Source: Promethearchaeota archaeon (GTDB lineage Archaea; Asgardarchaeota; Lokiarchaeia; Sigyniarchaeales; SOKP01). From it: a DNA stretch of 41,299 bases. The translations under genes and the position numbers were made by a program. Position 1 is the stretch's first letter, and every line of letters begins with the position of its first letter. Below are positions 20,252 to 41,299 of the stretch, one piece after another. Location of the stretch: contig JAUVXW010000038.1 of NCBI GenBank assembly GCA_030603385.1, positions 1 through 41,299 on the forward strand. The letters run 5' to 3'. The notes beneath the pieces were generated by a model that saw only the letters and a program-made list of their open reading frames with translations, was not told the DNA's origin and ran no database searches.

Positions 20252-20560
20252 TTATCTTAATGTTTTTTTTTTGTATATCCATTCAGTAGCATAGAGATAT
20301 CCATTTCGAACTATTAATTGACTTTTAGGGCACCATGTTCCACGTTTACCACCAATAAGTATTGCTTTTCGCGTCTGTTTTCTACGCCTTTGAGCTGGAA
20401 CCAATCTAATATACTTCTTTCCATTTTCATATATAACTTGTCCATGTTGTACTTCATGTTCTTCTCTAAAAATTATATTAAGATTATTTGGATTATTATT
20501 GAACTTATTTCCATCTTTATGATGAATGTCGTAATCAGATGCTATCGAGTCCCTATTTAT
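20252..20560 (-). pseudogene. 5'-truncated HNH endonuclease with C-terminal T.KA...W.PKS domain (absent from the ORF track)
   Basis: Manual translation: YDIHHKDGNKFNNNPNNLNIIFREEHEVQHG...ENGKKYIRL...KQTRKAILI...WCPKSQ...YLYATEWIYKK; no start codon, abuts the RM gene stop. Confidence 0.75.
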
Positions 20561-23538
20561 TATTCATATAAATATTCTCTCACAATCTGTTCACTTTCTT
20601 TAGATTTTAAGATTTTTGAGCCAATTTCATCGATTTTCGTAACTTCTTCTTGTATTACAGCCATTAATTCATGTTCCCTAATTTTCTCATTATTCCTCAC
20701 AAAATCTTCAACTTTCTGACCACATTTCTTTGATAAATTTGATATATTAAGTTGGTCTTCGTCACCAGTAAATTTAGGGATATTAAAATATAGCGGTCTT
20801 TTATGATGATGTCGAGTATCGCTAATTTTTTTTACGCTTCTTTCTAAAATCGAGTTATTAAGCATTCCACACAGGTAATAAGCCTCAAGCTCATTTTCAG
20901 TTCCATAATAGTATAATGTTGAGTCTACATAAACACGACCTTTAAGATCATGAATAACTGCTGCCGTCAATTTCTTAGCATTAGGAAACACGACTTTATA
21001 AAGTTTCCTTTGGGATGGTCGAACTATTTTATTAGTACATAGTTTATTTCTGTAATTGATGCCTACTTCAAATAGATCATTTTTTGTATTATTAAAATAA
21101 GTCTCTTTTATGGAATTCCAATGTTTTCGGCTAAAAGGACCAATCTTAGAAAGTCTATACTGAAAATTTGAATCTAAAGGCAAAAAAATGGAATATGGTT
21201 TTATATAAAATGGATATAATTCTCTTGATAATGTCGCTTTAAAGATATTTTCACTTTCTACTTGAACTTTCTTAAAGTATTTTTTTTTCCAGACTCCTTT
21301 AGCTTGAGGGGATATCCATGGATCGATGATTGATATTTTTCCTTGTTGAATTCTATTTACTACTTCACAATAGAGTAGAGATTTAGGTATTAAATCAGCC
21401 CCTTGAATAAACTCTTTATAATAATCTGATAAGAAGAAAGGTAACAATTCTTGTTTTTTCTCAGAATGTATTAATTTTTTAACTCTATATTTTTCTTTTC
21501 TTTTCTTGTGGAAATATACGTATGGTTCTAATTTGAAATCTTCAATTAATTCAAGCGTCTCAGAATCTAAATATTTACAATTGATTGGATATTTATTGAA
21601 CACATCATCTTGGTTTATTTTGATATCATTATAATTAGCAAAAATACAACAACAATCTATATTAAAAATCAAGTCATTAAATTCGAAAAATTCTATATTA
21701 AAGAAAGCATCAAACCTTCTCGCTTTTTCATTTTGAGATGAAACAAGTAAAGAACGAGGCATTATAAAAGCTATTTTTCCATTTCCATCTTTCCTTAAGT
21801 ATAAATCAGGTATTTTATAAAGAAACACCACTGCTTCTTCGATATTTGTTATATTTTTAGCATCAGGTCTGATATCAAATTGTTCAGTGATTTTTTTCAT
21901 ATTTTCTTGTAATTTCTTATCAGCATCTTTGTATGTTAGCCAAGGGGGATTTGTGATTATTAAATCCATCTTTTTCTTTAATAAGAGTAAATGAATACCA
22001 ACTAAATTATTTAGAATATATAACCAGATATGATCTTTATCTTGCTCTTTTAATACATATAATTCTTCGAAAAATTTTAGTATATATTGATATTCTATTT
22101 CATTTGAATCAAGAAAAGAAGATATAACATTTGTATCAATAGCTCTAATAGCTGCATCCCATGTATCTTTAAAACTATCAAATGTTTCCCATACTCGATA
22201 AAGTGAATCTAGAACAATTTGAAAAGATTCAATATTATTCTGAGTTAATGCACTTCCAGGGATTCGTAGCTCTAGCTCTTCATCCAATAAATCTATACAG
22301 AATGAATAGTAACTTCCTAATTCTATATCCGCATACGAAGCAAATTCTATTGGATCAATAGAATTACATAAATATACGTTTATGAATATATCTTCAATAA
22401 ATCTTTCTCTTGATTTAAAATATAATAATAAGTTAGCTTTGGTAGTAAGAACAGCAATAGGATTAATATCAAACCCAAAAATATTATTAACAGCCTTAAA
22501 CCATTCTTTTGGAGGTCTTTCATTAATGGTAAAATCAAATTGTGAATCAATTTTTTTGCAGGTTTCAATTAAAAATGTTCCCGATCCACAAGATGAATCT
22601 AACACGCGATCACCTAAATCATATGCTTTATTAACCATTTTTCTGCAGAGAATTTCAGGTGTGTAATATTCTCCTAACCGATGACGCACTCCAGCTATAA
22701 TCATTTCTTGATAGATTGTTCTAAAAATATCCGTTGCTTCAAAATTCATTATTTTTAACTTTTCAAAATAATCATCACAAAAATCTTTAACATTTATAAC
22801 CCAGCGAAAAAAATCATAATGGAACAATGATATTCCCAATTTCTCAAAATAGCCTTCCAAATCCTTAAAGTAATCACGGGAATATTCCTCGGGATCCATA
22901 AACTCTTTGTATAATATTAATTTTAGTAGTGTACTAAGATATGAATGTCTAAGGAATAGTTCTTTTCCAACTTCTTCATCATGATATGCTAGTCTAAAAT
23001 GGTTTTTCCATTGTTCAAAACACACATTTCCCTTTCTATAACGATCATCAAAATGTTTCTCCAATCTAGAATAAGCTAAGATGTATAATGGTGAATTCAC
23101 TCCAAATAATACGGCAAATTGATCAGAATTTACACTTTTTGGTTCGAGAAGACATTCTATTAATGATATAATTGATTTTCTATCGATTTCGCGATCATTT
23201 CTTAATGCTAAGTCTTTATCATAATAATAAATATTCTTTTCAGATATTACAATTAATAAAGAGGGATTTTTACCTCTTTTTTTCAAATACTCTTGGATAT
23301 ATTGGCTACCTTTCGTTAAGGCCCATTGATTTATTTCTCGCTTTTTCAGCTTATATTTAAAGTCAATAATTATATCTCCAATTAAACAATCTGGTTTACC
23401 CTTTAACAATCTTTGCTGTGGCTGATATTGTAATTCTAATTTATCAAATAAACTATCAAACAAATGCTCAATTTGATACTCGTTTTGAGCACGTTTAATC
23501 AAGTTTATGTCGATTTCAATGTCTTTTAGGGTTGCCAT
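20560..23538 (-). CDS. Type IIG-like restriction-modification fusion (endonuclease + N6-adenine MTase + specificity region)
   Basis: N-terminal KPD...IDFK; GEYYTP, DSSCGSGTFL, GFDINP, TNPPW. Confidence 0.88.
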   Translation of the reverse strand: MATLKDIEIDINLIKRAQNEYQIEHLFDSLFDKLELQYQPQQRLLKGKPDCLIGDIIIDFKYKLKKREINQWALTKGSQYIQEYLKKRGKNPSLLIVISEKNIYYYDKDLALRNDREIDRKSIISLIECLLEPKSVNSDQFAVLFGVNSPLYILAYSRLEKHFDDRYRKGNVCFEQWKNHFRLAYHDEEVGKELFLRHSYLSTLLKLILYKEFMDPEEYSRDYFKDLEGYFEKLGISLFHYDFFRWVINVKDFCDDYFEKLKIMNFEATDIFRTIYQEMIIAGVRHRLGEYYTPEILCRKMVNKAYDLGDRVLDSSCGSGTFLIETCKKIDSQFDFTINERPPKEWFKAVNNIFGFDINPIAVLTTKANLLLYFKSRERFIEDIFINVYLCNSIDPIEFASYADIELGSYYSFCIDLLDEELELRIPGSALTQNNIESFQIVLDSLYRVWETFDSFKDTWDAAIRAIDTNVISSFLDSNEIEYQYILKFFEELYVLKEQDKDHIWLYILNNLVGIHLLLLKKKMDLIITNPPWLTYKDADKKLQENMKKITEQFDIRPDAKNITNIEEAVVFLYKIPDLYLRKDGNGKIAFIMPRSLLVSSQNEKARRFDAFFNIEFFEFNDLIFNIDCCCIFANYNDIKINQDDVFNKYPINCKYLDSETLELIEDFKLEPYVYFHKKRKEKYRVKKLIHSEKKQELLPFFLSDYYKEFIQGADLIPKSLLYCEVVNRIQQGKISIIDPWISPQAKGVWKKKYFKKVQVESENIFKATLSRELYPFYIKPYSIFLPLDSNFQYRLSKIGPFSRKHWNSIKETYFNNTKNDLFEVGINYRNKLCTNKIVRPSQRKLYKVVFPNAKKLTAAVIHDLKGRVYVDSTLYYYGTENELEAYYLCGMLNNSILERSVKKISDTRHHHKRPLYFNIPKFTGDEDQLNISNLSKKCGQKVEDFVRNNEKIREHELMAVIQEEVTKIDEIGSKILKSKESEQIVREYLYE

Positions 23539-29173: not shown

Positions 29174-30138
29174 ATAAGTCTATTCCTCTTCTTATAATTT
29201 AAATAAGCGATTCCAACTGAAATTATACACACTAATCCTGAGACGATAATTAAATTATAACTATTAATATTGGGTGATCCTAGAGGAGGAGGACTGCCTA
29301 GTCCTAGATAGTAGAATTGCTTATTGTTTTTATTGAAAAAAGTGACTCCATATAGATCAGAAGATTGATTATGATATTCAGCATATACAAAATATTTCTG
29401 TTTAGCCTTTCTTGAAAATATGAGAGTCGTTTTTGAAAGAGTAATATTTTGAGGTGCAAGAGAACCTTTTAGTTCTTCTAGATATGAATCTACAGGTCTA
29501 CCAAACAGAAATCTCTTTAACATCATCTTATAAATAAATTCAGAAGCAGTAAAATTCTCAACGGATAAAAAGGAGTAATTAATTAAAGCTTGTATTTCCT
29601 CATAGACTAGGGACATTTCATTAGGATTTTGAAGTATAGGGAATTTGATATTAGCATAATCAGGTTCATCACTAAAGGAATTGTTTGAAAATGCCCAAAT
29701 ATCTCTTGTAATAATCCAAGAATCCCATTCACCTCCGATTTCTTCACGAGCTTGTTTAATATTCTCTTTTTGAATTACATCAAAGGTTACATCATATAAA
29801 CATTCAACAAAGTCAAACACATCAATTGAAATATTCTGAAGAGCCTTATTATAATATTTACATTGATATAAAACTTTATCGGCATTAGGTCCAAATAACT
29901 CTGAAGGATTTGTATTGCTCCCAAAGACATCTGCCCAAATAGACTGATTATATTGATAAATCTGTGTATAATCATTTGAAGCTATTCGAGGTTGTTGCCA
30001 CCCCACAGGTGGTTCATATTCAGGTTCTTCATCTGATGGTGAGGACTTCGGCCATTCAAATAACAAAATAAAACCAATAATACCCCCAATAAAAACCCCA
30101 ATTATAATTACAATCCCAATCTGTTGCCATTTTCTCAT
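29170..30138 (-). CDS. Cell-surface protein with N-terminal anchor and Loki-CTERM-like C-terminal tail
   Basis: Ends PNINSYNLIIVSGLVCIISVGIAYLNYKKRNRLI. Confidence 0.75.
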   Translation of the reverse strand: MRKWQQIGIVIIIGVFIGGIIGFILLFEWPKSSPSDEEPEYEPPVGWQQPRIASNDYTQIYQYNQSIWADVFGSNTNPSELFGPNADKVLYQCKYYNKALQNISIDVFDFVECLYDVTFDVIQKENIKQAREEIGGEWDSWIITRDIWAFSNNSFSDEPDYANIKFPILQNPNEMSLVYEEIQALINYSFLSVENFTASEFIYKMMLKRFLFGRPVDSYLEELKGSLAPQNITLSKTTLIFSRKAKQKYFVYAEYHNQSSDLYGVTFFNKNNKQFYYLGLGSPPPLGSPNINSYNLIIVSGLVCIISVGIAYLNYKKRNRLI

Positions 30139-30283
30139 TAAATTATCGCCAAATATAAATTACTATAAATCAAAAAACACAATCATTTTTAACATTTTCG
30201 TATAATTTTAATGATTTAGGACCGTTGTGTTATATTAAAGAATTTAGTGCTCTTTTTAATCTTTTTAATGAATAAAGAATGAT

Positions 30284-32071
30284 ATGTCTAACCTGATAGA
30301 ATTAGTATTTCTGTTTTTAGTTCTTATTTTAACGGGGTTAAGCATCATTTATTTCATAGCTCAGAAAAGAGAGAATTCACCCATCATTCTAAAATATACT
30401 ATAGTACTTCTTTTAGGGATCTCGGTTATCATTTTCATTATAAATTCATTACCCATTATAACGTCTGTTTCAGAGCCTGAAATTTCTTCTGAAAACGTAA
30501 TAATTACCAATATTCCGCTTTTTTTACTCTGCTTTTCTACTGCGTTATTTATTTATTCACTAAATATTTCCGATGATGATGTTATAGAATTGGACAAACC
30601 TTCAATCTTTAAATCAAGAAAAGGTACAATTAAAATTGGCAGAGTAATGAAAGGAGATCATAAGAAACATAAATTCTTTCTTTCACTTAAAGATCTGGAA
30701 AAGCATATGTTTATTTGCGGGGCAACAGGTACGGGAAAAACAACATTTTTACAATATCTTCTCATGAATTTTACTAAGCATCATAAAATTCCTTTTATGC
30801 TTGTTGAGTTTAAAGGAGAGTATCATTTTTTACAACGAAAAATTGAGAATTTATTAATAATAAGACCAGGAGATAATTTTTCGATAAATATCTTTAATCC
30901 AGGGAATATATCTCCAGAAGTTCATGCTGAACGAGTTTTTGATATTTTAAAGAGTGGTAAGTTTTTAGATGAAAATGCTGAGTTCAGCCCACAAATGGAA
31001 AAAGTTCTCGTTGAAATTCTAACGAAGGTATGTGGACACAAACAATTTCAGAGTTGGAAAGGGTTTTATGATTATTGTAAGGGGTATGCGAAGAATAAAA
31101 AAGATGAAATTCCAATGTTAAGTCAAACTCTTATCAGTATTACAAATAGGATTAGGCGGTTTTCCTTAGGGTCGTTAAAAGCATTATTTGATACAGATCA
31201 TAAAATTAAAATAGAAAATATTTTTGAGAGAAATATTTTAATTGATTTGAGCTCTATTATTCGTTTAGGTGGAGAGAAAGAAGATGCTCTTTTCTTTTTG
31301 AATATGCTATTAAAGTATTTATGGGATAAAAATCTCACGCGTGGAGCTTTTAATTTTAAGGGCATAAAACATGTGACTATCATCGAAGACACTCAATATT
31401 TTGCTCCAAAAGACCTTACTCGCAAAAATAAATTAACTACATATTTAGAAGATATTGCTTTGCTTCAAAGAGGTACTGGAGAATGTCTAATCTCCTTAGC
31501 AACTCATCCTGAAATAAGTCAAGAAATATTGGCAAATTGCGGCGTTTTGGTATGTTTTAAAACTCATATGGAAAAGGAATTTCTATGTAAATTATTAAAT
31601 CTTGATACAGAACATGAAGATTACCTATCAATTTTAGAGGAAGGGCAATGTTTAATTCGAGTTAATTCCATCAAGAGACCCTTTTTACTTGGCGTTCCAT
31701 TTGTTAAAAGAGATTGGTTAGAGATGTCAGAAATTAACAGAAATAATCAAGTTATTTTGGAAAATCTTGAAAATAAAAGTTTTGAGAGTGTAAAAACACC
31801 ATCCTTTAAATTTATCAAGAAATTTAAGGAAAAAAGTGCTAAAAGTATGAATAGAATAAATAATAAAATTAAAGGATTTAAGAATAAACTCAAAAAAAAG
31901 TTTAATGATAAAGAAATTGATCCATTAAGTATCCCTGATTTTGATTCTGATAAAGATTATTTAGAAAATGATATTGATACTTTTGATGAAGATGAAAAAG
32001 AGAGATTAGCATATGAGAGATTGAAAAAATACATAAATGAACTAGCCGCAGAACAGGAAAAAAGCGGTTAA
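30284..32071 (+). CDS. Membrane-anchored HerA/VirB4-like (DUF87) ATPase
   Basis: Three N-terminal TM helices; KHMFICGATGTGKT; atypical Walker B TIIEDTQ; QRGTG. Confidence 0.85.
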   Translation: MSNLIELVFLFLVLILTGLSIIYFIAQKRENSPIILKYTIVLLLGISVIIFIINSLPIITSVSEPEISSENVIITNIPLFLLCFSTALFIYSLNISDDDVIELDKPSIFKSRKGTIKIGRVMKGDHKKHKFFLSLKDLEKHMFICGATGTGKTTFLQYLLMNFTKHHKIPFMLVEFKGEYHFLQRKIENLLIIRPGDNFSINIFNPGNISPEVHAERVFDILKSGKFLDENAEFSPQMEKVLVEILTKVCGHKQFQSWKGFYDYCKGYAKNKKDEIPMLSQTLISITNRIRRFSLGSLKALFDTDHKIKIENIFERNILIDLSSIIRLGGEKEDALFFLNMLLKYLWDKNLTRGAFNFKGIKHVTIIEDTQYFAPKDLTRKNKLTTYLEDIALLQRGTGECLISLATHPEISQEILANCGVLVCFKTHMEKEFLCKLLNLDTEHEDYLSILEEGQCLIRVNSIKRPFLLGVPFVKRDWLEMSEINRNNQVILENLENKSFESVKTPSFKFIKKFKEKSAKSMNRINNKIKGFKNKLKKKFNDKEIDPLSIPDFDSDKDYLENDIDTFDEDEKERLAYERLKKYINELAAEQEKSG

Positions 32072-32097
32072 TTAATGTTTTAATCTGTATAGCTTCA

Positions 32098-32682
32098 TTA
32101 AATCATTAAACTTAGGGAAGTTCTAAATCCAACAAGGATCCAGAAGAAGAAGCCAACACCTATAAATGTCATGAACTTCAATTTAGAACGTAGTATGAAT
32201 TTATTAAAGAACATCAGATAAATTCCTATGATTATTAAGAGAAGCGAAATTAATGAGAGAGAATTTATAAAAAAAAATAAGGCCCTGAGCCCTATATTTA
32301 AGCTGTGAACATCATTTAATGAGATAGAATTGAAATCCTCCATGTAACCTAACAATATTGCTGGTTCTGGTAAAATTTCGAACAATTGAAACAATGATTT
32401 CAGGAGATCTTCAGATAAGAAGGCAAACGCGAGAATAAAGTAAATTGCCATTCCTATCCTTCCACGTTTTTTCACCAATTCTTCTTTTCCATGAACCCTC
32501 TCATCATATTCTCTTTCTCTTGCATTTATCAATAAAAGGACACTCAGAATTAGAAAGAGAGAAAAGAACAAATAATTAGCATGCTTGAAGAGGACATAAA
32601 AAAAGTTGTTAAATCCATTTAGAAAAGGGATTAGTGGTTCAAAAATTTCACTGAAATCAAATTCTGAAAGATAATCTAACAT
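32098..32682 (-). CDS. Integral membrane protein (~4 TM)
   Basis: Four hydrophobic stretches in 194 aa. Confidence 0.75.
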   Translation of the reverse strand: MLDYLSEFDFSEIFEPLIPFLNGFNNFFYVLFKHANYLFFSLFLILSVLLLINAREREYDERVHGKEELVKKRGRIGMAIYFILAFAFLSEDLLKSLFQLFEILPEPAILLGYMEDFNSISLNDVHSLNIGLRALFFFINSLSLISLLLIIIGIYLMFFNKFILRSKLKFMTFIGVGFFFWILVGFRTSLSLMI

Positions 32683-32933
32683 AACAACTTCAATTAATCA
32701 AAATCTATAGTTCTGCAAATTTTATTTAGGACACTAGAAAGTTCAATAATAGGTATTTAAAGTCAAATTTTTGAGATGTTGAGAGAAGTTCTATTTAGTT
32801 GATATATTCTTTTCTCTCGACTTAAACAAATGAAGGTGAAATAAGTTATCTAAAATTTTAAATATTAGAATGTAATCTTTTAGTTTAATCGTTAAAATTT
32901 TGTAAAATGTTATTTAACCGAGGGTGAAAAATT

Positions 32934-35840
32934 TTGAAGAATAATACAAAATATTTGATTTTAATGCTGATCGCAATTACACTAACTTTTCTTAATATTA
33001 AGATATTACCACATCAATCCATTGAAGGAAAAGATTCCCTTGAGGTTATTACTCCACAACCTCCCAGAGTATCTCCTGTTTATTACGAAGATACGGCCGG
33101 ATTAGCACGTGGCATTTACTTGAGCGGAGATTACGCCTACGTGGCTGTTGGGAGCTGGGGCTTAGCGGTCATTGACATTTCCGATCCGACAAATCCGGGA
33201 TACCCCCGCTACAGCGTCACAACCGGATGGTCACGGGACATCTACGTGAGCGGAGATTATGCCTATATGGCTGATAATACTTCGGGCTTGGCGGTCATTG
33301 ACATCTCCGACCCAATAATCCCGGGAACACCCGTCTATGAACCCACGACCTCATTGGCATGCGGTGTTTACGTGAGCGGAAATTATGCCTATGTAGCGGA
33401 TGATGAAGAAGGCTTGGCGGTCATTGATATATCCAACCCGACAAACCCGGGAACGCCCGACTACAGAAACACGACCGGATCTGCATATGGCATTTACGTG
33501 AGCGGAGATTATGCCTACGTGGCTGATGGGGGCTCTGGCTTGGCGGTCATTGATATTTCCAACCCGACCAACCCTGGAACGCCTGTCTACGAAGACACGA
33601 CCGGATCTGCGTATGATGTTTACGTTAGCGGAGATTACGCCTACGTGGCTGATGGGAGCTCGGGCTTGGCAGTCATTGACATTTCCGATCCGACAAATCC
33701 GGGACCGCCCGTCTACGAAGACACGACCGGATCTGCAAATGACGTTTACGTGAGCGGAGATTACGCCTACGTGGCTGATGGGAGCTCTGGCTTGGCGGTC
33801 ATTAACATTTCCGACCCGACTAACCCGGGAATGTTCTTCTACGAAGACACGACTGATAATGCCCTTGGCGTTCACGTGAGCGGAAGTTATGCCTACGTGG
33901 CTGATGAGAGCTCTGGCTTGGCGGTCATCAAAGTTTCCGACCCGATCAGCCTGGGAACGCCCATCTACGAAGACACGACCGGATTTGCATATGACGTTTA
34001 CGTGAGCGGAGATTACGCCTACGTGGCTGTTGGGTACTCTGGCTTGGCGGTCATTGACATTTCCGACCCGACCAACCCGGGACCAACCTTCTACGAAGAT
34101 ACGACCGGAACTGCGTATGATGTTTACGTTAGCGGAGATTACGCCTACGTGGCTGATGGGTACGATGGCTTGGCGGTCATTGACATTTCCGACCCAACAA
34201 ATCCAGGAACACCCAATTATTACCTTACAACTGATGCTCGTGGCGTGTACGTGAGTGGAGATTATGCCTATGTAGCGGATGCTTCGATCAATGGCTTGTG
34301 GGTCATTGATATTTCCGACCCGACCAACCCAAGACTCGCCGATATCCAAATGGGTAATATATTAGACGTTTACGTGAGCGGAGATTACGCCTACGCGGCT
34401 GGTTTTTCCAGTGGCTTGTTTGTATTTGATATTTCCGACCCTTTCGGCTCGGGAGTGCCGATCTCCAGCGAGGACACGACTGGTTATGCACGTGGCATTT
34501 ACGTGAGCGGAGATTATGCCTATGTAGCGGATGATGAAGAAGGCTTGGCGGTCATTGATATATCCAACCCGACAAACCCGGGAACGCCCGACTACAGAAA
34601 CACGACCGGATCTGCATATGGCATTTACGTGAGCGGAGATTACGCCTATGTAGCAGATGAGGCCTCGGGCTTGGCAGTCATCGACATTTCCGATCCGACC
34701 AACCCAGGAACGCGCATCTACAAAGACACGACCGGATCTGCACGTGGCATTCACGTGGACCAGGATTACGCCTATGTAGCCGATGGAATTTCGGGCTTGG
34801 CGGTCATTCAAGTAAGACAACTAATTGATGAGTGGAATCCTGTAATTACCGATTTACCTAGCGATCTTTCCGTCGAATACAGCTACACTGGGCAGAGTCT
34901 ATCATGGACTGCGATTGATGCTAACCCAGATATATATACCATCGAATTGGAAGGAACAGGAATAGTAGATGGTCCGAATGTATGGACGTACGGAAATACA
35001 ATTACCTACAACATCCCCGAGGGATTTAGCCTAGGATCCTACATTTACACGGTTAACTTCACAGATCTTCGGGGCCATTTCGTTACCGACAGCGTCAATT
35101 TTGAAGTAGGTGCAGACACGATCGATCCAACAATAATTAGCGCTCCAAGCGATTTCATTTTGGAATTCGGATACACGGGGCAGAGCCTGTCGTGGACGGC
35201 AACTGATCCCAATCCTGACACTTACACGATTGAACTCCAAGGGTCAGGAATAATAGATGGTCCGAATGTATGGACGAGCGGAAACGCAATTACCTACAAC
35301 ATCCCTAATGGATTTAGCCTAGGATCGTACATTTACACGGTTAACTTCACGGACGACTTTGGTAATTCTAAAATTGACAGCGTTACATTTACAGTAGATG
35401 ACACTATTGCTCCTATAATTATGATTAATTCTCCAAATACCAATGATGAATTTGGCACTCTTGCTCCAGCATATGAAATTTCCATCAATGATCCACATTT
35501 AGATAAAATTTGGTATACGCTAGATGGAGGTCTTACTAATATTACAACTGCAAGTGTATCAGGACCAATAAATGAAGCTATTTGGGAAGGGATTTCAGAA
35601 GGTCCTGTAACTATAAGATTTTATGCTAACGATACATTAGGAAACATCGATTATAACGAAGTTACTGTAATAAAATCTGTACCAGCTAAAGACTCAGACA
35701 ATTTTTGGAAAGATTTGATGCAACAAGGACTATTAATCCCTATAGTTGGAGCTGGTGTAGGAGGTATAATTGGGATAGCTTTTTTCATTATTAAGAGGAA
35801 GTTAAAGAAAAAGGGAGAGAAAGTTGGTGTTGCTGCATAA
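32934..35840 (+). CDS. Cell-surface LVIVD-repeat protein (14 repeats, two Ig-like modules, C-terminal TM)
   Basis: 14 x ~42-aa VYVSGDYAYVAD..GLAVIDISDP repeats; signal peptide; TM plus basic tail. Confidence 0.92.
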   Translation: MKNNTKYLILMLIAITLTFLNIKILPHQSIEGKDSLEVITPQPPRVSPVYYEDTAGLARGIYLSGDYAYVAVGSWGLAVIDISDPTNPGYPRYSVTTGWSRDIYVSGDYAYMADNTSGLAVIDISDPIIPGTPVYEPTTSLACGVYVSGNYAYVADDEEGLAVIDISNPTNPGTPDYRNTTGSAYGIYVSGDYAYVADGGSGLAVIDISNPTNPGTPVYEDTTGSAYDVYVSGDYAYVADGSSGLAVIDISDPTNPGPPVYEDTTGSANDVYVSGDYAYVADGSSGLAVINISDPTNPGMFFYEDTTDNALGVHVSGSYAYVADESSGLAVIKVSDPISLGTPIYEDTTGFAYDVYVSGDYAYVAVGYSGLAVIDISDPTNPGPTFYEDTTGTAYDVYVSGDYAYVADGYDGLAVIDISDPTNPGTPNYYLTTDARGVYVSGDYAYVADASINGLWVIDISDPTNPRLADIQMGNILDVYVSGDYAYAAGFSSGLFVFDISDPFGSGVPISSEDTTGYARGIYVSGDYAYVADDEEGLAVIDISNPTNPGTPDYRNTTGSAYGIYVSGDYAYVADEASGLAVIDISDPTNPGTRIYKDTTGSARGIHVDQDYAYVADGISGLAVIQVRQLIDEWNPVITDLPSDLSVEYSYTGQSLSWTAIDANPDIYTIELEGTGIVDGPNVWTYGNTITYNIPEGFSLGSYIYTVNFTDLRGHFVTDSVNFEVGADTIDPTIISAPSDFILEFGYTGQSLSWTATDPNPDTYTIELQGSGIIDGPNVWTSGNAITYNIPNGFSLGSYIYTVNFTDDFGNSKIDSVTFTVDDTIAPIIMINSPNTNDEFGTLAPAYEISINDPHLDKIWYTLDGGLTNITTASVSGPINEAIWEGISEGPVTIRFYANDTLGNIDYNEVTVIKSVPAKDSDNFWKDLMQQGLLIPIVGAGVGGIIGIAFFIIKRKLKKKGEKVGVAA

Positions 35841-35857
35841 CTTAAAGTTATAAAATC

Positions 35858-35901
35858 CTTTTTTTTATATCTCTTTTATTTTTTATTTATGATTTTTTTT
35901 T
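35858..35901 (+). terminator. Oligo-T tract terminator candidate after the LVIVD gene
   Basis: Several T6-T9 runs just after the stop codon. Confidence 0.45.
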
Positions 35902-35915
35902 ATAATGCTATTATT

Positions 35916-35963
35916 CTGAAAGGTAAATTCAGAGTCTGATTTCAATGAAAATTCCTTTGAAAA
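35916..35963 (+). repeat. Intergenic palindromic repeat, copy 1 of 5
   Basis: CTGAAAGGTAAATTCAGAGTCTGATTTCAATGAAAATTCCTTTGAAAA. Confidence 0.97.
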
Positions 35964-36198
35964 AACCGAACTATTTTATCATTAATCTTCTATGTTGTAA
36001 AATTTCTGACAATATTGTAAAGATATATATATAGTAACTTCTTAATCATCAATTGCCAAATTTTTGGTTTTAATTAATTTGAATCAAATATTTTAAAGCA
36101 TTTTTTTTTATGTGAAGGTTAACGCCTTGTTTAAAGGAGCAATCTTTTCAAGGCTAAAAGAAAAATCGAGGTTAACCAAAAAAATATTTGAGGTGAAA

Positions 36199-36870
36199 AT
36201 GGTAATGAAAAAGAAAATAAAAGTGACTAAAGCACTAATAGCAGTATCATTTTTAATAGGTATCATCGCACTTGTTACACCAGTGATTGCTTATGGCGCT
36301 AATGGCATTTTAATCATTGGAAAAGGGGATGACATGGATCTTGCTGAAACTACTAATTTTATCATTGCAAAGATTGATTTCGATAAAGATGGTGGTATTC
36401 CTAGGGCACATGTAATATTCCATTCAAAAATCTGTGATGAATCAGGGGAAAAAGTGTATGCAATGAAAGGAATGCTCAAAGATGGATTACTTCTAACAAC
36501 CGATCATTATTTTTATTGCCCAATCTTTAATGTCTGGTTTATTAATGTTTGGTGGGTCATGGGTGAGGGAATGGTTAAGACTACTGATACCGATTTTGAG
36601 GTATTTTTTCGAAACTCACTTCCAATAACTATGCCAAATACAGAAGGTAAATACGTATCAGCACCAATTTTAATGTTTCTGAGCCTTACAGCAGAATATT
36701 GTTTAGAAGATCCTGGCACATATCCCCCAGGAACATATCCTCCAGTTTTTATCATGCCAGAAGGAGGATGGATTCTTGCTGCGGTTATATGGGAAGTTGA
36801 AACACCGATCGGTCCAATGGAATTGCCGGTCGGTCCGATATCCTATTTGACAAAATATGTGGAATATTAG
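36199..36870 (+). CDS. Secreted hypothetical protein
   Basis: ATG at 36199 follows GAGGTGA; signal-peptide-like N-terminus. Confidence 0.75.
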   Translation: MVMKKKIKVTKALIAVSFLIGIIALVTPVIAYGANGILIIGKGDDMDLAETTNFIIAKIDFDKDGGIPRAHVIFHSKICDESGEKVYAMKGMLKDGLLLTTDHYFYCPIFNVWFINVWWVMGEGMVKTTDTDFEVFFRNSLPITMPNTEGKYVSAPILMFLSLTAEYCLEDPGTYPPGTYPPVFIMPEGGWILAAVIWEVETPIGPMELPVGPISYLTKYVEY

Positions 36871-36987
36871 GTCTCATCACGCTGCGTCAATCATATCAGA
36901 TAAAAAATATATTCTAAAATCTTTTTTTTTTCTTTTTTTTTAAAGAGATTTTTAAATTTTGTCCTAATTTTCTGTAAAACTGAAATG

Positions 36988-37028
36988 GAAAAGTAAATTC
37001 AGCGTCTGATTTCAATGAAAATTCCTTT
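36988..37028 (+). repeat. Intergenic palindromic repeat, copy 2 of 5
   Basis: GAAAAGTAAATTCAGCGTCTGATTTCAATGAAAATTCCTTT. Confidence 0.95.
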
Positions 37029-37086
37029 ACTACAATGGTTAAAATTGAAGATTTTTATCTACGATCAAATATTTTAGGTTATAATT

Positions 37087-37362
37087 ATGTCAACATTTAA
37101 GGTTTCTATCGAAATTTCCGATATTCTTGAAGAAGGGAAATGTCCTTTAGGTCATGTAGTTGGGGAAAATTTCCATTATCCTGAAGATCGTGGGAAAATT
37201 TGTGCTGCCGCATTTAACTCTATTTATCCTTATATTCGTGTATTAGAATCAGGTGGGTCCTATTCCTTTTTTGAAGATGATGGTAACACTCATAAAGCGT
37301 GCTGTCCTGATTATAAGCGCCCTGTCGTATTTAAAATGACTCGAAATGCAATATCGCAGTAG
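37087..37362 (+). CDS. TIGR04076-like Cys-rich small protein
   Basis: G.CP.GH.VG...ICAAAF..IYP...CCPD..RPVVF. Confidence 0.8.
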   Translation: MSTFKVSIEISDILEEGKCPLGHVVGENFHYPEDRGKICAAAFNSIYPYIRVLESGGSYSFFEDDGNTHKACCPDYKRPVVFKMTRNAISQ

Positions 37363-37492
37363 TAGACTACCCTTTCTAATAGAAAAGTATCGATAGAAGT
37401 ATTTAGAGCCCTAGGGAAAATTATTATATGGGATTATATTCCAGACTAAATTGGACTAATATCAGCTGGTTATATACTATAAGATGAAGGTC

Positions 37493-37540
37493 CTGAAAGG
37501 TAAATTCAGAGTCTGATTTCAATGAAAATTCCTTTGAAAA
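37493..37540 (+). repeat. Intergenic palindromic repeat, copy 3 of 5
   Basis: Identical to copy 1 over 48 bp. Confidence 0.97.
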
Positions 37541-37633
37541 GACAAAAAAATCTTAAATCGAAATTATAGTACACAAGGCTTTTAAAGAAACTTTTCTTCC
37601 TTTATTTTAAATTTATAATTAGGTTAGACAAAT

Positions 37634-39211
37634 ATGATTAAAGAAAGTTTTGCAGAAAAAGTTGATGAATTATTTAAGCAATGGGATAAACCAGACACCC
37701 CCGGATGTGCTGTAGCCATCATAAAGGATGGTAAGATTGTTTATAAAAAGGGTTATGGTATGGCCGATCTGGAGCATAACATTTCCATTACCTCTAAAAC
37801 TATATTTAGCGTCGGTTCAATTTCAAAACAATTTACAGCAATGTGTATACTCCTTCTCGTTGAGCAAAAGAAAATCTCCCTTGGTGATGATATTAGAAAA
37901 TATTTACCGAAATTTCCAGATTATGGTCAAAAGATTGCGATTCGTCATTTGATTCATCATACAAGTGGTATTCGGGATTATGCTAGTTTATTGAGCCTAA
38001 AAGGTATGAACACTCTGGAAATGACAAACCTTCCCATGCATGAAACCTTAAGTATCATCTTTAAACAGAGAGAGCTTAATTTTACTCCAGGAGATGATAT
38101 ACTCTATTGTAATTCAGGTTACCTGATGTTAGCAGCCATAATTAAAAATGTAACTGGAAAAACTTTAAGAGAATTTGCAGAAGAAAACATATTTAAGCCC
38201 CTTGGTATGAAAAATACTAATTTTATTGACGACAATAAATATATTATTAAAGATCGGGCTTTTGGTTATATACCCAATGGAAAAAAAGGATACTTTAATG
38301 CGATTATTAGCCATAGGAATTGGATAGGACCTGGAGGGGTTTATTCTAATGTAGAGGATCTTTTTTTATGGGATCAAAATTATTATAATAACAAATTAGG
38401 AAAAGGGGGGCAAGATTTAATCAAAACCATGCAGACTCCCGGTAAATTAAACAATGGAGAACAAGTAAATTATGCTTTCGGACTTGCTATTGATAAATAT
38501 AAAGAACAAAAAATAATTTTACATAGCGGAGGAACAGGAGGGTATAATGCACAATACATTTCCTTTCCTAAATATAAATTTTCTGTAATAATATTAGCTA
38601 ATATTCGAAGTGTAATGCCTGAACCATTAGCAAATAAAATTGCTGAGATATTTTTAGAAAGATTCTTTGAACTTGAACACACTAAATTTTCAGTTAATCC
38701 TAAGATTTTTCAATATTATGTAGGAAAATATCAATCAGACTCTTTAGGCATAGTATCAATTTCGCGTAAAAATAATGACCTTATGATCCAAGCAAGTCTA
38801 CGGTTTCCTGCATTGAAGCTCATTGCTGGATCTGAAACCTCTTTTATTTTAGAATATCCTAATCTACGGATAACATTTCAGAAGGATGAAGAAAACATTT
38901 ACTCAGAATTTATCTTATATGAGCAAGGAAAAGAATCTAAAATTAAACGAATAGAATCATCCAAACTAGTGCTAGAAGAGTTAAAAGGATATGTCGGAGG
39001 ATATTATAGTGAAGAAATCGACCATACTTATACCCTTATCATAAAGAATGACAGTTTATATATCGCTAACTTTGAGATGGTGTTCGCTGAAAAAGACAAA
39101 TTCCTCACAAATTGGGCGATACTTAGGTTCAAAAGAAACAATAATGGGAATATCGAAGGCTTTAATCTAAATGCCTGGGGGGTAAGAAATTTATGGTTTA
39201 AAAGAAAATAG
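37634..39211 (+). CDS. Serine hydrolase, beta-lactamase class C / penicillin-binding protein family
   Basis: SISK (SxxK), YCN (YxN), HSG triad, LIHHTSG. Confidence 0.92.
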   Translation: MIKESFAEKVDELFKQWDKPDTPGCAVAIIKDGKIVYKKGYGMADLEHNISITSKTIFSVGSISKQFTAMCILLLVEQKKISLGDDIRKYLPKFPDYGQKIAIRHLIHHTSGIRDYASLLSLKGMNTLEMTNLPMHETLSIIFKQRELNFTPGDDILYCNSGYLMLAAIIKNVTGKTLREFAEENIFKPLGMKNTNFIDDNKYIIKDRAFGYIPNGKKGYFNAIISHRNWIGPGGVYSNVEDLFLWDQNYYNNKLGKGGQDLIKTMQTPGKLNNGEQVNYAFGLAIDKYKEQKIILHSGGTGGYNAQYISFPKYKFSVIILANIRSVMPEPLANKIAEIFLERFFELEHTKFSVNPKIFQYYVGKYQSDSLGIVSISRKNNDLMIQASLRFPALKLIAGSETSFILEYPNLRITFQKDEENIYSEFILYEQGKESKIKRIESSKLVLEELKGYVGGYYSEEIDHTYTLIIKNDSLYIANFEMVFAEKDKFLTNWAILRFKRNNNGNIEGFNLNAWGVRNLWFKRK

Positions 39212-39720
39212 TCTATAAATCCGTTGAGTCGTTTCTAGTGTGCTATGTCATTAAAGGACAATCCTATCCCGCCTTACAGAAGTTAACACACTTTACCGAA
39301 ACCATTCGAGAGAACTCGGAAATTTGGCAAACCTTCAATAAGTCAGTTAAAACAAGCGAGATGTTGGAACTCGACAAACCTCCCGCGCTCAAAACAGTTA
39401 TCGATGAGATTTTTACTCAATAAATTTAGCAGAGAATTCTCTCTTCAAAACCAACGAAATAATAATCATTTTAAAGAGACTATCTGTTGAAAAGGTAACT
39501 TACTCCTTGATCTGATCATAATAAATGTGTGATGAAAACTATCTATTCGTGAGGAAAGTTATCTTTTTCATTATGTGCGTTAATTTCTCACCCCCAAATT
39601 TCGAATAGTTATGTAAGATTTTACCAATCGAAACATTTAAATACTCTAATTTATCTAATATAATTAAGAGAAGAGGAAGAAGGAACATCAGATCTTCAAT
39701 CTGAAGAGATTCAGAGTCAG

Positions 39721-40128
39721 GTGTCAAGAGAGGGTACTGATATTTCAGACAAAAAAGAAGAACAATTAGAAACACAAGGTGGCACAATGGAAACCAGTTA
39801 TCTTCCTGGACAAAGACCAAAAGAAAAGCAAGATAAAAAGGATGAGATTCATCCCTATATACTTACATCAGGAGAAGAACAAAGGCAACCAGATAAGAGA
39901 AGTTCTGAAGATTATGATGGTATTGATGAAAGGCTTGATGATAAGAAATTTGATTATGATGGTATCGACTCACATTCTGAGGACGATAAAAGCGATATTA
40001 AGAGTTTAGAAGGAGGGGATGATGAGCAAAGTAATGATTATGATGGAATAGACAATCCTCAAGAAAAAGTAGATAAAGATTATGATAAGATAGATGATAG
40101 ATATGGTGAGGGGGGTTATGAAGGATGA
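39721..40128 (+). CDS. Acidic YDGID-repeat protein (probably a C-terminal remnant)
   Basis: DYDGID x3 plus DYDKID; overlaps the ATG of a HerA stub. Confidence 0.55.
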   Translation: MSREGTDISDKKEEQLETQGGTMETSYLPGQRPKEKQDKKDEIHPYILTSGEEQRQPDKRSSEDYDGIDERLDDKKFDYDGIDSHSEDDKSDIKSLEGGDDEQSNDYDGIDNPQEKVDKDYDKIDDRYGEGGYEG

Positions 40129-40235
40129 TATATCGTTTTGGCAATCTCGAATTAAGATAATCCGAACGCCAGCACATTTTATACCTCAATAATTGTACTT
40201 AACGAAATATAAATAATAATCAAAAAAATTCCTGA
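39954..40235 (+). repeat. Second copy of the 2112-2395 segment
   Basis: ~89% identity by manual alignment; ends at palindromic repeat copy 4. Confidence 0.95.
40118..40192 (+). pseudogene. HerA-like ATPase N-terminal stub
   Basis: MKDDISFWQSRIKIIRTPAHFIPQ*; truncated at the same codon as the 2277 stub. Confidence 0.8.
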
Positions 40236-40279
40236 ATGGTAAATTCAGCGTCTTATTTCAATGAAAATTCCTTTGAAAA
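40232..40279 (+). repeat. Intergenic palindromic repeat, copy 4 of 5
   Basis: CTGAATGGTAAATTCAGCGTCTTATTTCAATGAAAATTCCTTTGAAAA. Confidence 0.95.
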
Positions 40280-40394
40280 AATTAAGTCTTCACTATGAAA
40301 TCTAAAACCATTTTCCAGAGGAAAAATAAAAAAAAAAGGGATTTATCTTGATTTGTTTTTTTAGTTTTGAGTTACTTAAGAAATCTTACTCAGA

Positions 40395-40835
40395 TCAAAC
40401 CTTTTCATTATAAAGCTTGAAGTTTACGTGGCCTATTCCTCCACCTTCCAGCCCTGGATCCAGACATCCAGCAATTCCAGCAAAGATCGAGTCATTAAGT
40501 TCATCTATATCATCAACGTCTTTGCTATAAAGTTCTATACCGCGTTCCCAAGCCTGTTGCACAGAAATAAGCACAGGAATGAGTGCCCTAGGGCAAAGAG
40601 GACAAGTGGATTCCTTCGCGTTCAAGAACGGGTTAAAAACAATTTTGTCTCCTACCTTGATTTGCGCGAAGCAGTATTTGGAAGATGTAACCTCAGCTAT
40701 GAGCTTATATCCCATAGATTTTGCTGCATTTGCAAATATCTTCTCTATATTCCGTGGAACCTTAGCCAAGTCTTCATCAGTTACACCTACTATATTTTTT
40801 AACACGTTTTTAGCTGTTTCATCCATATTTTTCAC
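40395..40835 (-). CDS. TIGR04076-like Cys-containing protein
   Basis: AEV..SKYC...KVGD...LCPRA...CLDPG...GG.G.V.F. Confidence 0.7.
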   Translation of the reverse strand: MKNMDETAKNVLKNIVGVTDEDLAKVPRNIEKIFANAAKSMGYKLIAEVTSSKYCFAQIKVGDKIVFNPFLNAKESTCPLCPRALIPVLISVQQAWERGIELYSKDVDDIDELNDSIFAGIAGCLDPGLEGGGIGHVNFKLYNEKV

Positions 40836-40962
40836 CCCCTTTAAAGATCATATTAGATCCCATGAGGATTCGATTTAAGATTAATGAACAATTATTTTTA
40901 TATTTAAGGGGAAATATGAAGTTGTTTTAAATTTTGTCCCAATTTTCTGTGAAATTGGGTTG

Positions 40963-41008
40963 GAAAGGTAAATTCATAGTCTGATTTCAATGAAAATTCC
41001 TTTGAAAA
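40963..41008 (+). repeat. Intergenic palindromic repeat, copy 5 of 5
   Basis: GAAAGGTAAATTCATAGTCTGATTTCAATGAAAATTCCTTTGAAAA. Confidence 0.95.
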
Positions 41009-41183
41009 CACGAAGTAAAGTCAAGAAAGATTCGGAATCGAAAAAGTTTTCTCAAAGAATATTAAATTTATGATTTAAAGTCTTAATTATATATTCCTCA
41101 CACTTTAATATCGTTATTTTTTATAATATTTATATAGCTAATTTATAATTTAATAAGAAAAGAATCATCCATATAGAAAGACA

Positions 41184-41299
41184 ATGATAAAAGGAGTGTT
41201 TTTTGATCTTTATGGAACACTATTGATTTATAATGATTTGGAAAGGTCACAGGAGGACGGGCTTTTAGAAATATACAAATACTTAAGAAATTTAGGCTT
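41184..41299 (+). CDS. HAD-family hydrolase, N-terminus (partial)
   Basis: MIKGVFFDLYGTLL = HAD motif I. Confidence 0.85.
   Translation, partial: MIKGVFFDLYGTLLIYNDLERSQEDGLLEIYKYLRNLG

Follow-up and report, generated by a model that had tools for sequence, protein, structure and literature searches.

A co-oriented intergenic site that delimits accessory-gene modules in a Lokiarchaeial genus and its linkage to IntM, a candidate Xer-like recombinase

The DNA analyzed here, referred to as the window, is a stretch of 41,299 nucleotides from a Promethearchaeota archaeon of the Lokiarchaeia (assembly GCA_030603385.1, contig JAUVXW010000038.1), in which five copies of a short repeated site, named M in the following, separate unrelated accessory genes. 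M is most likely the attachment site of a Xer-like integrase carried on small mobile elements, so that gene capture and shuffling are recorded in the arrays of M and may still be possible there. The site was not described in the Asgard mobile-element literature searched, and what is new here is a candidate enzyme tied to it, encoded in an operon for a small ribbon-helix-helix-like (RHH) protein and the Xer-like tyrosine recombinase IntM. All coordinates are those of the whole stretch; G000 denotes the source genome and C19 the contig of the window, and other G-, C- and L-numbers denote genomes, contigs and further contigs or loci that were compared.

Site M and the cassettes of the window

A scan of the window located M on the + strand at 35919, 36989, 37496, 40235, and 40964, with 0–3 mismatches to a 40-nt motif and with a chance expectation of 0 in 100 shuffles. 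The distances from copy to copy amount to 1070, 507, 2739, and 729 bp and all five copies lie between open reading frames (ORFs), which reproduces the co-oriented intergenic repeat and the spacing reported in an initial annotation made from the sequence alone. The observations of that annotation that copy 4 is flanked by the 3′ ends of convergent genes and copy 5 by the 5′ ends of divergent ones, and that the arms of M form an imperfect inverted repeat pairing at 11 of 16 positions around the 8-bp core TCTGATTT (hand count), are correct as well. The RYYYAAC/GTTRRRY ends of integron attC sites, already noted as missing, occur neither in the window copies nor in the M consensus, and the search for tyrosine (PF00589) and serine recombinases (PF00239) gave no match on the window contig, as had been stated for the window.

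The conserved unit derived from 88 copies of 8 species exceeds 40 bp and comprises approximately 47 bases, from GGAAAGG to GAAAA, reading about GGAAAGG-TAAATTCAGnGTCTGATTTCAATGAAAATT-CCTTTGAAAA. The positions TAAATTCAG are conserved to 86–99%, a single central position, n, is hypervariable and is occupied by A or C, and the right end of M is less conserved. Conservation of the core amounts to 94–99% across the 8 species, whereas the array-flanking genes shared by the same species (thermosome, HerA-like ATPase, and a 194-aa ORF) reach only 83–88% DNA identity. M moreover holds nested dyads and three TT(T/C)CnnTGAAA boxes. In short unitigs of four metagenomes the edges of the repeat are sharp, its flanks are heterogeneous and the depth at M is in 10–100-fold excess; the pile-ups in these unitigs, termed loose ends, help to delimit the copies. 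Copy 1 spans 35915–35966 (core 35919–35958) with loose ends at 35918 and 35964–35966, copy 3 spans 37492–37543 with loose ends at 37494/37495 and 37530, and copy 4, placed by the motif scan and by junction alignments, spans 40231–40281, all on the + strand. Copies 2 (36950–37035, +) and 5 (40925–41011, +; loose ends at 40925) bear an additional conserved left extension of approximately 40 nt, called type-A, which consists of TTTTTAAATTTTGTCCC followed by a palindrome; in copy 2 it is represented by TTTTAAATTTTGTCC and what follows, and in copy 5 the palindrome has an 8-bp stem. A copy elsewhere in the source genome (C13, 32827–32880) has a right half that is seemingly inverted, ATTTCAAAGGAATT being the reverse complement of the usual AATTCCTTTGAAAT, which might reflect recombination of two inverted sites or be due to chance.

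The cargo between the copies is unrelated, as described initially, and profiles match its TIGR04076 and beta-lactamase-fold/DUF3471 families. Cassette 1 (35967–36949, +) encodes a protein (36199–36870) in which an N-terminal signal-like hydrophobic segment was read from the sequence and for which no Pfam or NCBIfam family matched, and cassette 2 (37036–37491, +) encodes a TIGR04076 family protein (37087–37362; 63.6 bits against a cut-off of 33). In cassette 3 (37544–40230, +) a beta-lactamase-fold/DUF3471 protein, assigned by profile match (37634–39211), is followed by gene remnants; this part contains a 3′ fragment of a TPR-protein gene in a 61-codon ORF (39238–39423), a relic of the backbone of an IntM element (39454–39671) and an acidic 135-aa ORF (39721–40128). 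Full-length relatives of the TPR gene, of 606–680 aa, occur in several arrays of G002, and two of them have their stop codon within the TTTTTTAAATTTT box of the next M unit. Cassette 4 (40282–40924, −) encodes a Cys-rich 146-aa protein (40395–40835). In cassette 5 (41012–41299, +), a HAD-IA hydrolase gene starts at 41184 and is cut off after its 5′ part by the end of the contig; its family was assigned via a full-length gene of G002 that matches HAD-IA models and shares approximately 95% DNA identity over the common 375 bp.

Distribution, polarity and homology breaks at M

In the 3.9-Mb assembly of the source genome, an nhmmer profile search finds 15 copies of M, the next match having an E-value of only approximately 0.4. 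Of these, five close C19 (the window), the ends of C42 and C13 carry four and three, respectively, and the other three stand singly on C58, C47, and C26. The arrays are co-oriented and located at contig ends. C13 and C19 break off within one and the same HAD cassette, the gene of which reappears with its 3′ end at the start of C42, so that the arrays probably run across assembly breaks. Of 36 species sampled from the genus, 34 have M, with 1–31 copies each; it was found in 0 of 24 genomes from other genera of the same order or class and on at least 120 JGI metagenome contigs, and IMG/VR gave no match. Among 274 copies from 149 sources, 124 of 125 adjacent pairs are co-oriented (p = 6e-36), and the same is true for all M copies on each of the 45 multi-copy metagenome contigs. 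The M-to-M intervals have a median length of 1.19 kb and hold a single gene in 42 of 66 cases.

This strict polarity of the sites is not shared by the genes. Genes flanking M are arranged ++ in 23, +− in 21, −− in 17, and −+ in 16 cases, of the genes downstream of M, 42 run in the direction of the site and 40 against it, and no fixed distance from M to gene starts was found. As the four configurations occur at similar frequency and the distance to starts is variable, roles as promoter, terminator or leader are excluded, a conclusion that had been drawn initially from copies 4 and 5 alone with regard to promoters and terminators. The cargo of the arrays comprises miscellaneous accessory genes, which encode beta-lactamase-fold and alpha/beta hydrolases, esterases, NosD/beta-helix and TPR proteins, acyltransferases, one AMP-binding enzyme, and one HAD hydrolase.

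Comparison between genomes shows that homology frequently breaks at M. Both partners have M at 52 of 164 internal homology endpoints, while DNA within 30 bp of M makes up only 3.2%; breaks are thereby approximately ten times commoner at M than by chance, and junction alignments likewise put them at M. The HAD cassette (at least 94.7% identity) is preceded by four mutually unrelated cassettes in C13, C19, G002, and L121, and cassette 5 of the window is 95–98% identical to the end of C13, to L051 of G002 and to L121. Similarly, the Cys cassette recurs with 90–94% identity beside other neighbors in G002 (L053/L061), L063, and L073, which gives four contexts including the window, and its homology begins at M copy 4; L062 has only the coding sequence (CDS) of the Cys protein in common with the window and no M is present there. 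A search for arrangements of the type A-M-C versus A-M-B-M-C revealed that the same two flanks enclose two cassettes in C13 and one different cassette in C19. In L142 the end of cassette 1 and M copy 2 are followed by a different gene, and the final approximately 390 bp of cassette 3 together with M copy 4 share 84% identity with the end of C13. The array downstream of the thermosome gene occupies the same locus in three species and differs in content. In a few cases cassettes could be compared between species, and these are 90–96% identical versus the 83–88% of the shared array-flanking genes. These comparisons support the view that M acts as a junction with a direction, at which gene modules can be swapped.

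IntM, its RHH partner and their relics in the arrays

On two metagenome contigs, L160 and L177, an operon beside M encodes a 182-aa RHH-like protein with a weak NikA-like match and the tyrosine recombinase IntM of 306–307 aa, which matches PF00589 with 81 bits. The nearest family of IntM is archaeal XerA, with a score far below the family cut-off, and its best solved relative is XerA (Protein Data Bank entry 5hxy), to which it aligns with the active-site Arg, the HxxR motif, the second His, and the Tyr in register and with no extra insert between the conserved motifs. With integron integrase models IntM scores 50.2 bits against a cut-off of 265 (TIGR02249) and 24.4 bits against 435 (NF011946). 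The complete modules of L160 and L177, 5.1 and 6.3 kb in size, carry M at both ends as direct repeats of 30–38 bp, and L177 shows modules of this kind in tandem. Each of them also encodes a protein of 492–505 aa, for which likeness to viral SF2 helicases is suggested by language-model features only.

The linkage between the operon and M is fixed. Six loci combine an intact RHH gene and IntM, or at least its beginning, with visible upstream DNA (L160, L177, L214, L216, L217, and L225). In each of them 48 bp separate the left edge of M from the start codon of RHH, and the operon is directed away from the site, which places M next to the TATA box of the RHH-IntM promoter. If loci with RHH alone and truncated RHH genes (stumps) are counted, the divergent start codon is found 47–51 bp from M in 12 loci of at least six assemblies; the stump of L131 is 5.4 kb away from the nearest detected M, and its local M is curtailed. 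Close copies of IntM (at least 83% identity) occur in approximately 5 of the 54 genus genomes searched and more distant ones (32–59%) in three more. RHH-IntM paralogues with 46–59% identity are present on G008:C76, G063:C79, and G026:C7 (L220, L221, and L218), where no M is detectable beside them, and these may use other attachment sites.

Remnants of this operon are spread over the arrays. Read on the opposite strand, the type-A extension, which accompanies 30 of the 88 M copies, is the promoter with the leader of the RHH-IntM operon. Some copies additionally keep the ribosome-binding site, the start codon and 29–110 codons of RHH, and such stumps also exist in G001 and G002, where searches for IntM gave XerA-level matches only. 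The different lengths of the stumps indicate that the integrase end was deleted independently. Within the window, 39454–39671 is 79% identical to L160 5747–5963 and L177 2939–3123, which lie inside complete IntM modules. Many cassettes have the appearance of integrative elements in decay and not of dedicated promoterless cassettes. Two partial copies (L131:6150–6425 and L063:5850–5900) retain the left arm and only GGTA(AATT) of M before unrelated DNA follows, with the break near GGTAAATT; as a weak suggestion from sequence comparison, they may be junctions with secondary targets, with the crossover near the left edge of M.

Two further observations concern the type-A copies. A tRNA fragment considered for CACAAGGTTCGAGCC was dropped, as these bases, when read on the opposite strand, form the leader of the RHH-IntM operon. 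The palindrome between the TATA box of the operon and M (40938–40959 in the window, also in other type-A copies) has an 8-bp stem that is kept by paired changes (CCCAATTT/AAATTGGG versus CAAATTTT/AAAATTTG), and its position upstream of the TATA box makes a protein-binding dyad more likely than an RNA hairpin.

Interpretation, alternatives and comparison with known systems

The reading that we favor, with a probability of about 0.62, is that M serves IntM, a Xer-like tyrosine recombinase specific to the genus, as the site of attachment and crossover, and that IntM is carried together with the RHH protein on integrative elements of 5–6 kb. Taken by itself, M is probably a site-specific recombination (attachment, att) site; that IntM is the enzyme acting on it is held with less confidence. 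An element with one M would recombine with a chromosomal M to yield M-element-M in direct orientation, IntM presumably cutting within the site, and repeated insertion at any resident M would generate co-oriented arrays. Deletions would then strip the integrase, the RHH gene and the helicase-like backbone, leaving cargo genes each followed by an M. Such integrase-less modules might still be excised, inserted or exchanged at M with IntM supplied in trans, or alternatively by the host XerA or by homologous recombination between M copies, so that single cassettes could continue to move. The window is proposed to represent a fossil state, with five M copies, five accessory modules, one of them with a backbone relic, and no integrase in the genome.

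Several findings weigh against this reading. The source genome contains no IntM and only a XerA with 26% identity to it, and in most congeners among the 54 genomes IntM was not found either; the recombinase that the initial annotation suggested looking for beside the array is thus present next to M elsewhere in the genus and, XerA aside, absent from G000. Genomes with IntM have 4–8 copies of M versus up to 31 (G002) in genomes without it; the missing positive relation suggests that another enzyme may act at or maintain M. M is near-invariant in genomes without IntM, for which the favored reading does not account and which keeps host XerA or another enzyme in play. Furthermore, the adjacencies of IntM and M are copies of one element family and thus represent one inherited association, not independent events, and M does not contain a clear Xer-type dyad of 11-6-11 geometry. 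Some breakpoints lie off M (L098 versus L114), and the TIGR04076 CDS is found in either direction with respect to M, between flanks that lack homology: L176 matches only this CDS at window 37055–37352, with 91% identity and reversed relative to M. Some cargo has therefore been moved or rearranged by other means than M-to-M exchange. Finally, the short unitigs of the four metagenomes revealed neither excision circles nor empty sites nor any further product of recombination; joints between M copies in these unitigs, including joints that go back, were not used as evidence for circles, as M is repeated and such joints are indistinguishable from mis-joins. From the initial proposal of a tyrosine-recombinase site serving gene capture and shuffling, the physical tie to such a recombinase, the directional junction and the breaks at M are supported, whereas recombination itself was not observed.

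Among the alternatives, the one that survives best, although unlikely, is that M is a dif-like site of the host XerA and that the modules, IntM elements included, exploit XerA as integrative mobile elements exploiting Xer (IMEX) and pdif modules exploit bacterial XerC/D. A XerA-like gene is present in four of five genomes checked with PF00589 (not in G003), a match of at least XerA level was obtained in 50 of the 54 genus genomes, no tyrosine recombinase other than XerA was detected in the one-contig genome G006, genomes that lack IntM can hold large arrays, and IntM itself belongs to the Xer-like group. However, Xer recombinases are widespread in archaea, whereas M is restricted to this genus when compared with the 24 genomes of neighboring genera. 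M also stands at five or more loci per genome and not at one, no xerA gene lies near any array, and the fixed IntM-M linkage would be left unexplained. The geometry does not fit well either: archaeal dif sites are given as 11-6-11 (PMC8371274), and in the test for a 28-bp dif-type site the best frame of M with a 6-nt spacer pairs only 6 of 11 positions, one frame with a 7-nt spacer in the right half reaching 8 of 11.

Slightly less probable still is that M is mainly a protein-binding regulatory element, e.g., the operator of the RHH-IntM operon, with the remaining copies being promoter leftovers and the rearrangements resulting from ordinary homologous recombination. The position of M 48 bp upstream of the operon beside its TATA box, the dyads and boxes within M, and the 47 bp of near-identity, which could support homologous exchange, are consistent with such a role. 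On the other hand, 58 of the 88 copies lack the promoter extension, M is also found at the far end of IntM modules away from any promoter and has no fixed relation to neighboring genes, and strict co-orientation over unrelated cargo is a product of site-specific insertion, not of leftovers alone.

That M is a small RNA gene, or a selfish repeat of the repetitive extragenic palindrome (REP) or miniature inverted-repeat transposable element (MITE) type spreading by transposition, is very improbable and disfavored: M is short, conserved and intergenic, contains dyads and reaches a very high depth in sediment metagenomes, but it has no Rfam match, folds no better than shuffled sequence as RNA or single-strand DNA (−5.5 to −10.3 kcal/mol with z-scores of −0.95 to −1.7 for the latter), lacks a promoter conserved upstream of all 88 copies, and occurs in low numbers in co-oriented clusters instead of being scattered in both orientations as expected for REP/MITE repeats, whose Y1 transposases (REP-associated tyrosine transposases, RAYT) are missing from the five genomes checked. 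In the underlying searches, PF00239 and PF01797 (Y1 transposase) yielded nothing but one pseudogene in these five genomes, and a Rfam scan of 30000–41299 gave only a sub-threshold TPP match inside the beta-lactamase-fold gene. Readings of M as a C/D-box sRNA or as an origin-recognition box were dropped on account of the wrong box order and the gene-sized spacing.

Under the favored IntM reading, the system would work like the tandem accretion of integrative elements and their integrase-less relics, with an outcome that resembles chromosomal integrons and clusters of attC sites lacking integron-integrases (CALINs). Tandem accretion is described for cis-mobilizable elements (CIMEs) of ICESt1/3-type elements including integrase-less derivatives (PMC5704250), and comparable cases are the ssrA islands of Dehalococcoides (PMC3146451), the tycheposons of Prochlorococcus (bioRxiv 10.1101/2020.12.28.424599) and tandem integrated archaeal elements (PMC8371274). 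An integrase gene beside the att site, direct att repeats around each unit, tandem pile-up, integrase-less relics that keep att, and islands of accessory genes are common to both, and all of these are found for IntM and M. The M system differs in using a dedicated intergenic target and not a tRNA or tmRNA gene, in units that are mostly single genes of approximately 1.2 kb, and in occupying several loci per genome throughout a whole Asgard genus.

Archaeal integrons reported so far, which are enriched in Asgard archaea, are based on attC and IntI (Ghaly et al. 2022, PMC9668308). The M arrays share with integrons and CALINs the co-oriented arrays of a repeated recombination site with mostly one gene in between, variable cassettes of one to two genes with accessory cargo at conserved loci, the lack of an integrase in most arrays, and a recombinase from the Xer/IntI-like group of simple tyrosine recombinases. 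In contrast, M has no attC R″/R′ boxes and no strong single-strand hairpin, attI is missing, IntM is not IntI, and its gene lies within a module flanked by M and not at the head of the array. In M arrays genes point either way and presumably have their own promoters, unlike integron cassettes, which are promoterless, one-directional and read from Pc, and many M modules are visibly decayed elements. With dif, pdif and IMEX systems M has in common an Xer-like recombinase, a short, partly palindromic site and modules without a recombinase of their own between sites, but pdif sites alternate in orientation and follow the 11-6-11 geometry, whereas M is co-oriented and longer and shows no clear dyad of this kind. 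The integron-like or dif-module-like platform that the initial annotation had proposed is thus not sustained in either form. We regard it as doubtful, although conceivable, that the arrays are a working archaeal counterpart of integrons, in which single-gene circles would be re-inserted at any M by IntM in trans or by the host XerA. If this were true, the whole Lokiarchaeial genus would share an exchangeable pool of accessory genes whose site and enzyme are unrelated to attC/IntI.

Gene gain and loss in Asgard archaea are relevant to models that describe gene flow close to the origin of eukaryotes, and the elements and enzymes that move genes in these organisms are still poorly characterized. 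For one Lokiarchaeial genus, the present analysis supplies a defined DNA site, a candidate recombinase with its accessory protein and dozens of natural cassettes. If IntM is active, the M-IntM pair could serve as a genetic tool for these organisms.

The DNA upstream of the array also has an accessory appearance. Directly upstream of M copy 1, 32934–35840 encodes a 968-aa LVIVD-repeat protein with approximately 13 tandem units of 126 bp; in G002 the orthologous 194-aa neighbor gene is followed directly by M, without the LVIVD-repeat gene in between. Within 1–32700 many ORFs have no family, and the genes recognized there include a HerA/FtsK-like ATPase (30284–32071), an SNase/OB protein and an Eco57I/MmeI-like methylase fusion (20560–23538). 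The first 19.9 kb have almost no DNA match in the congeners G002, G006, and G024 and are therefore unusable as an identity baseline, with the exception of bases 1–141, which match an array region of G002 contig C15 with 96% identity.

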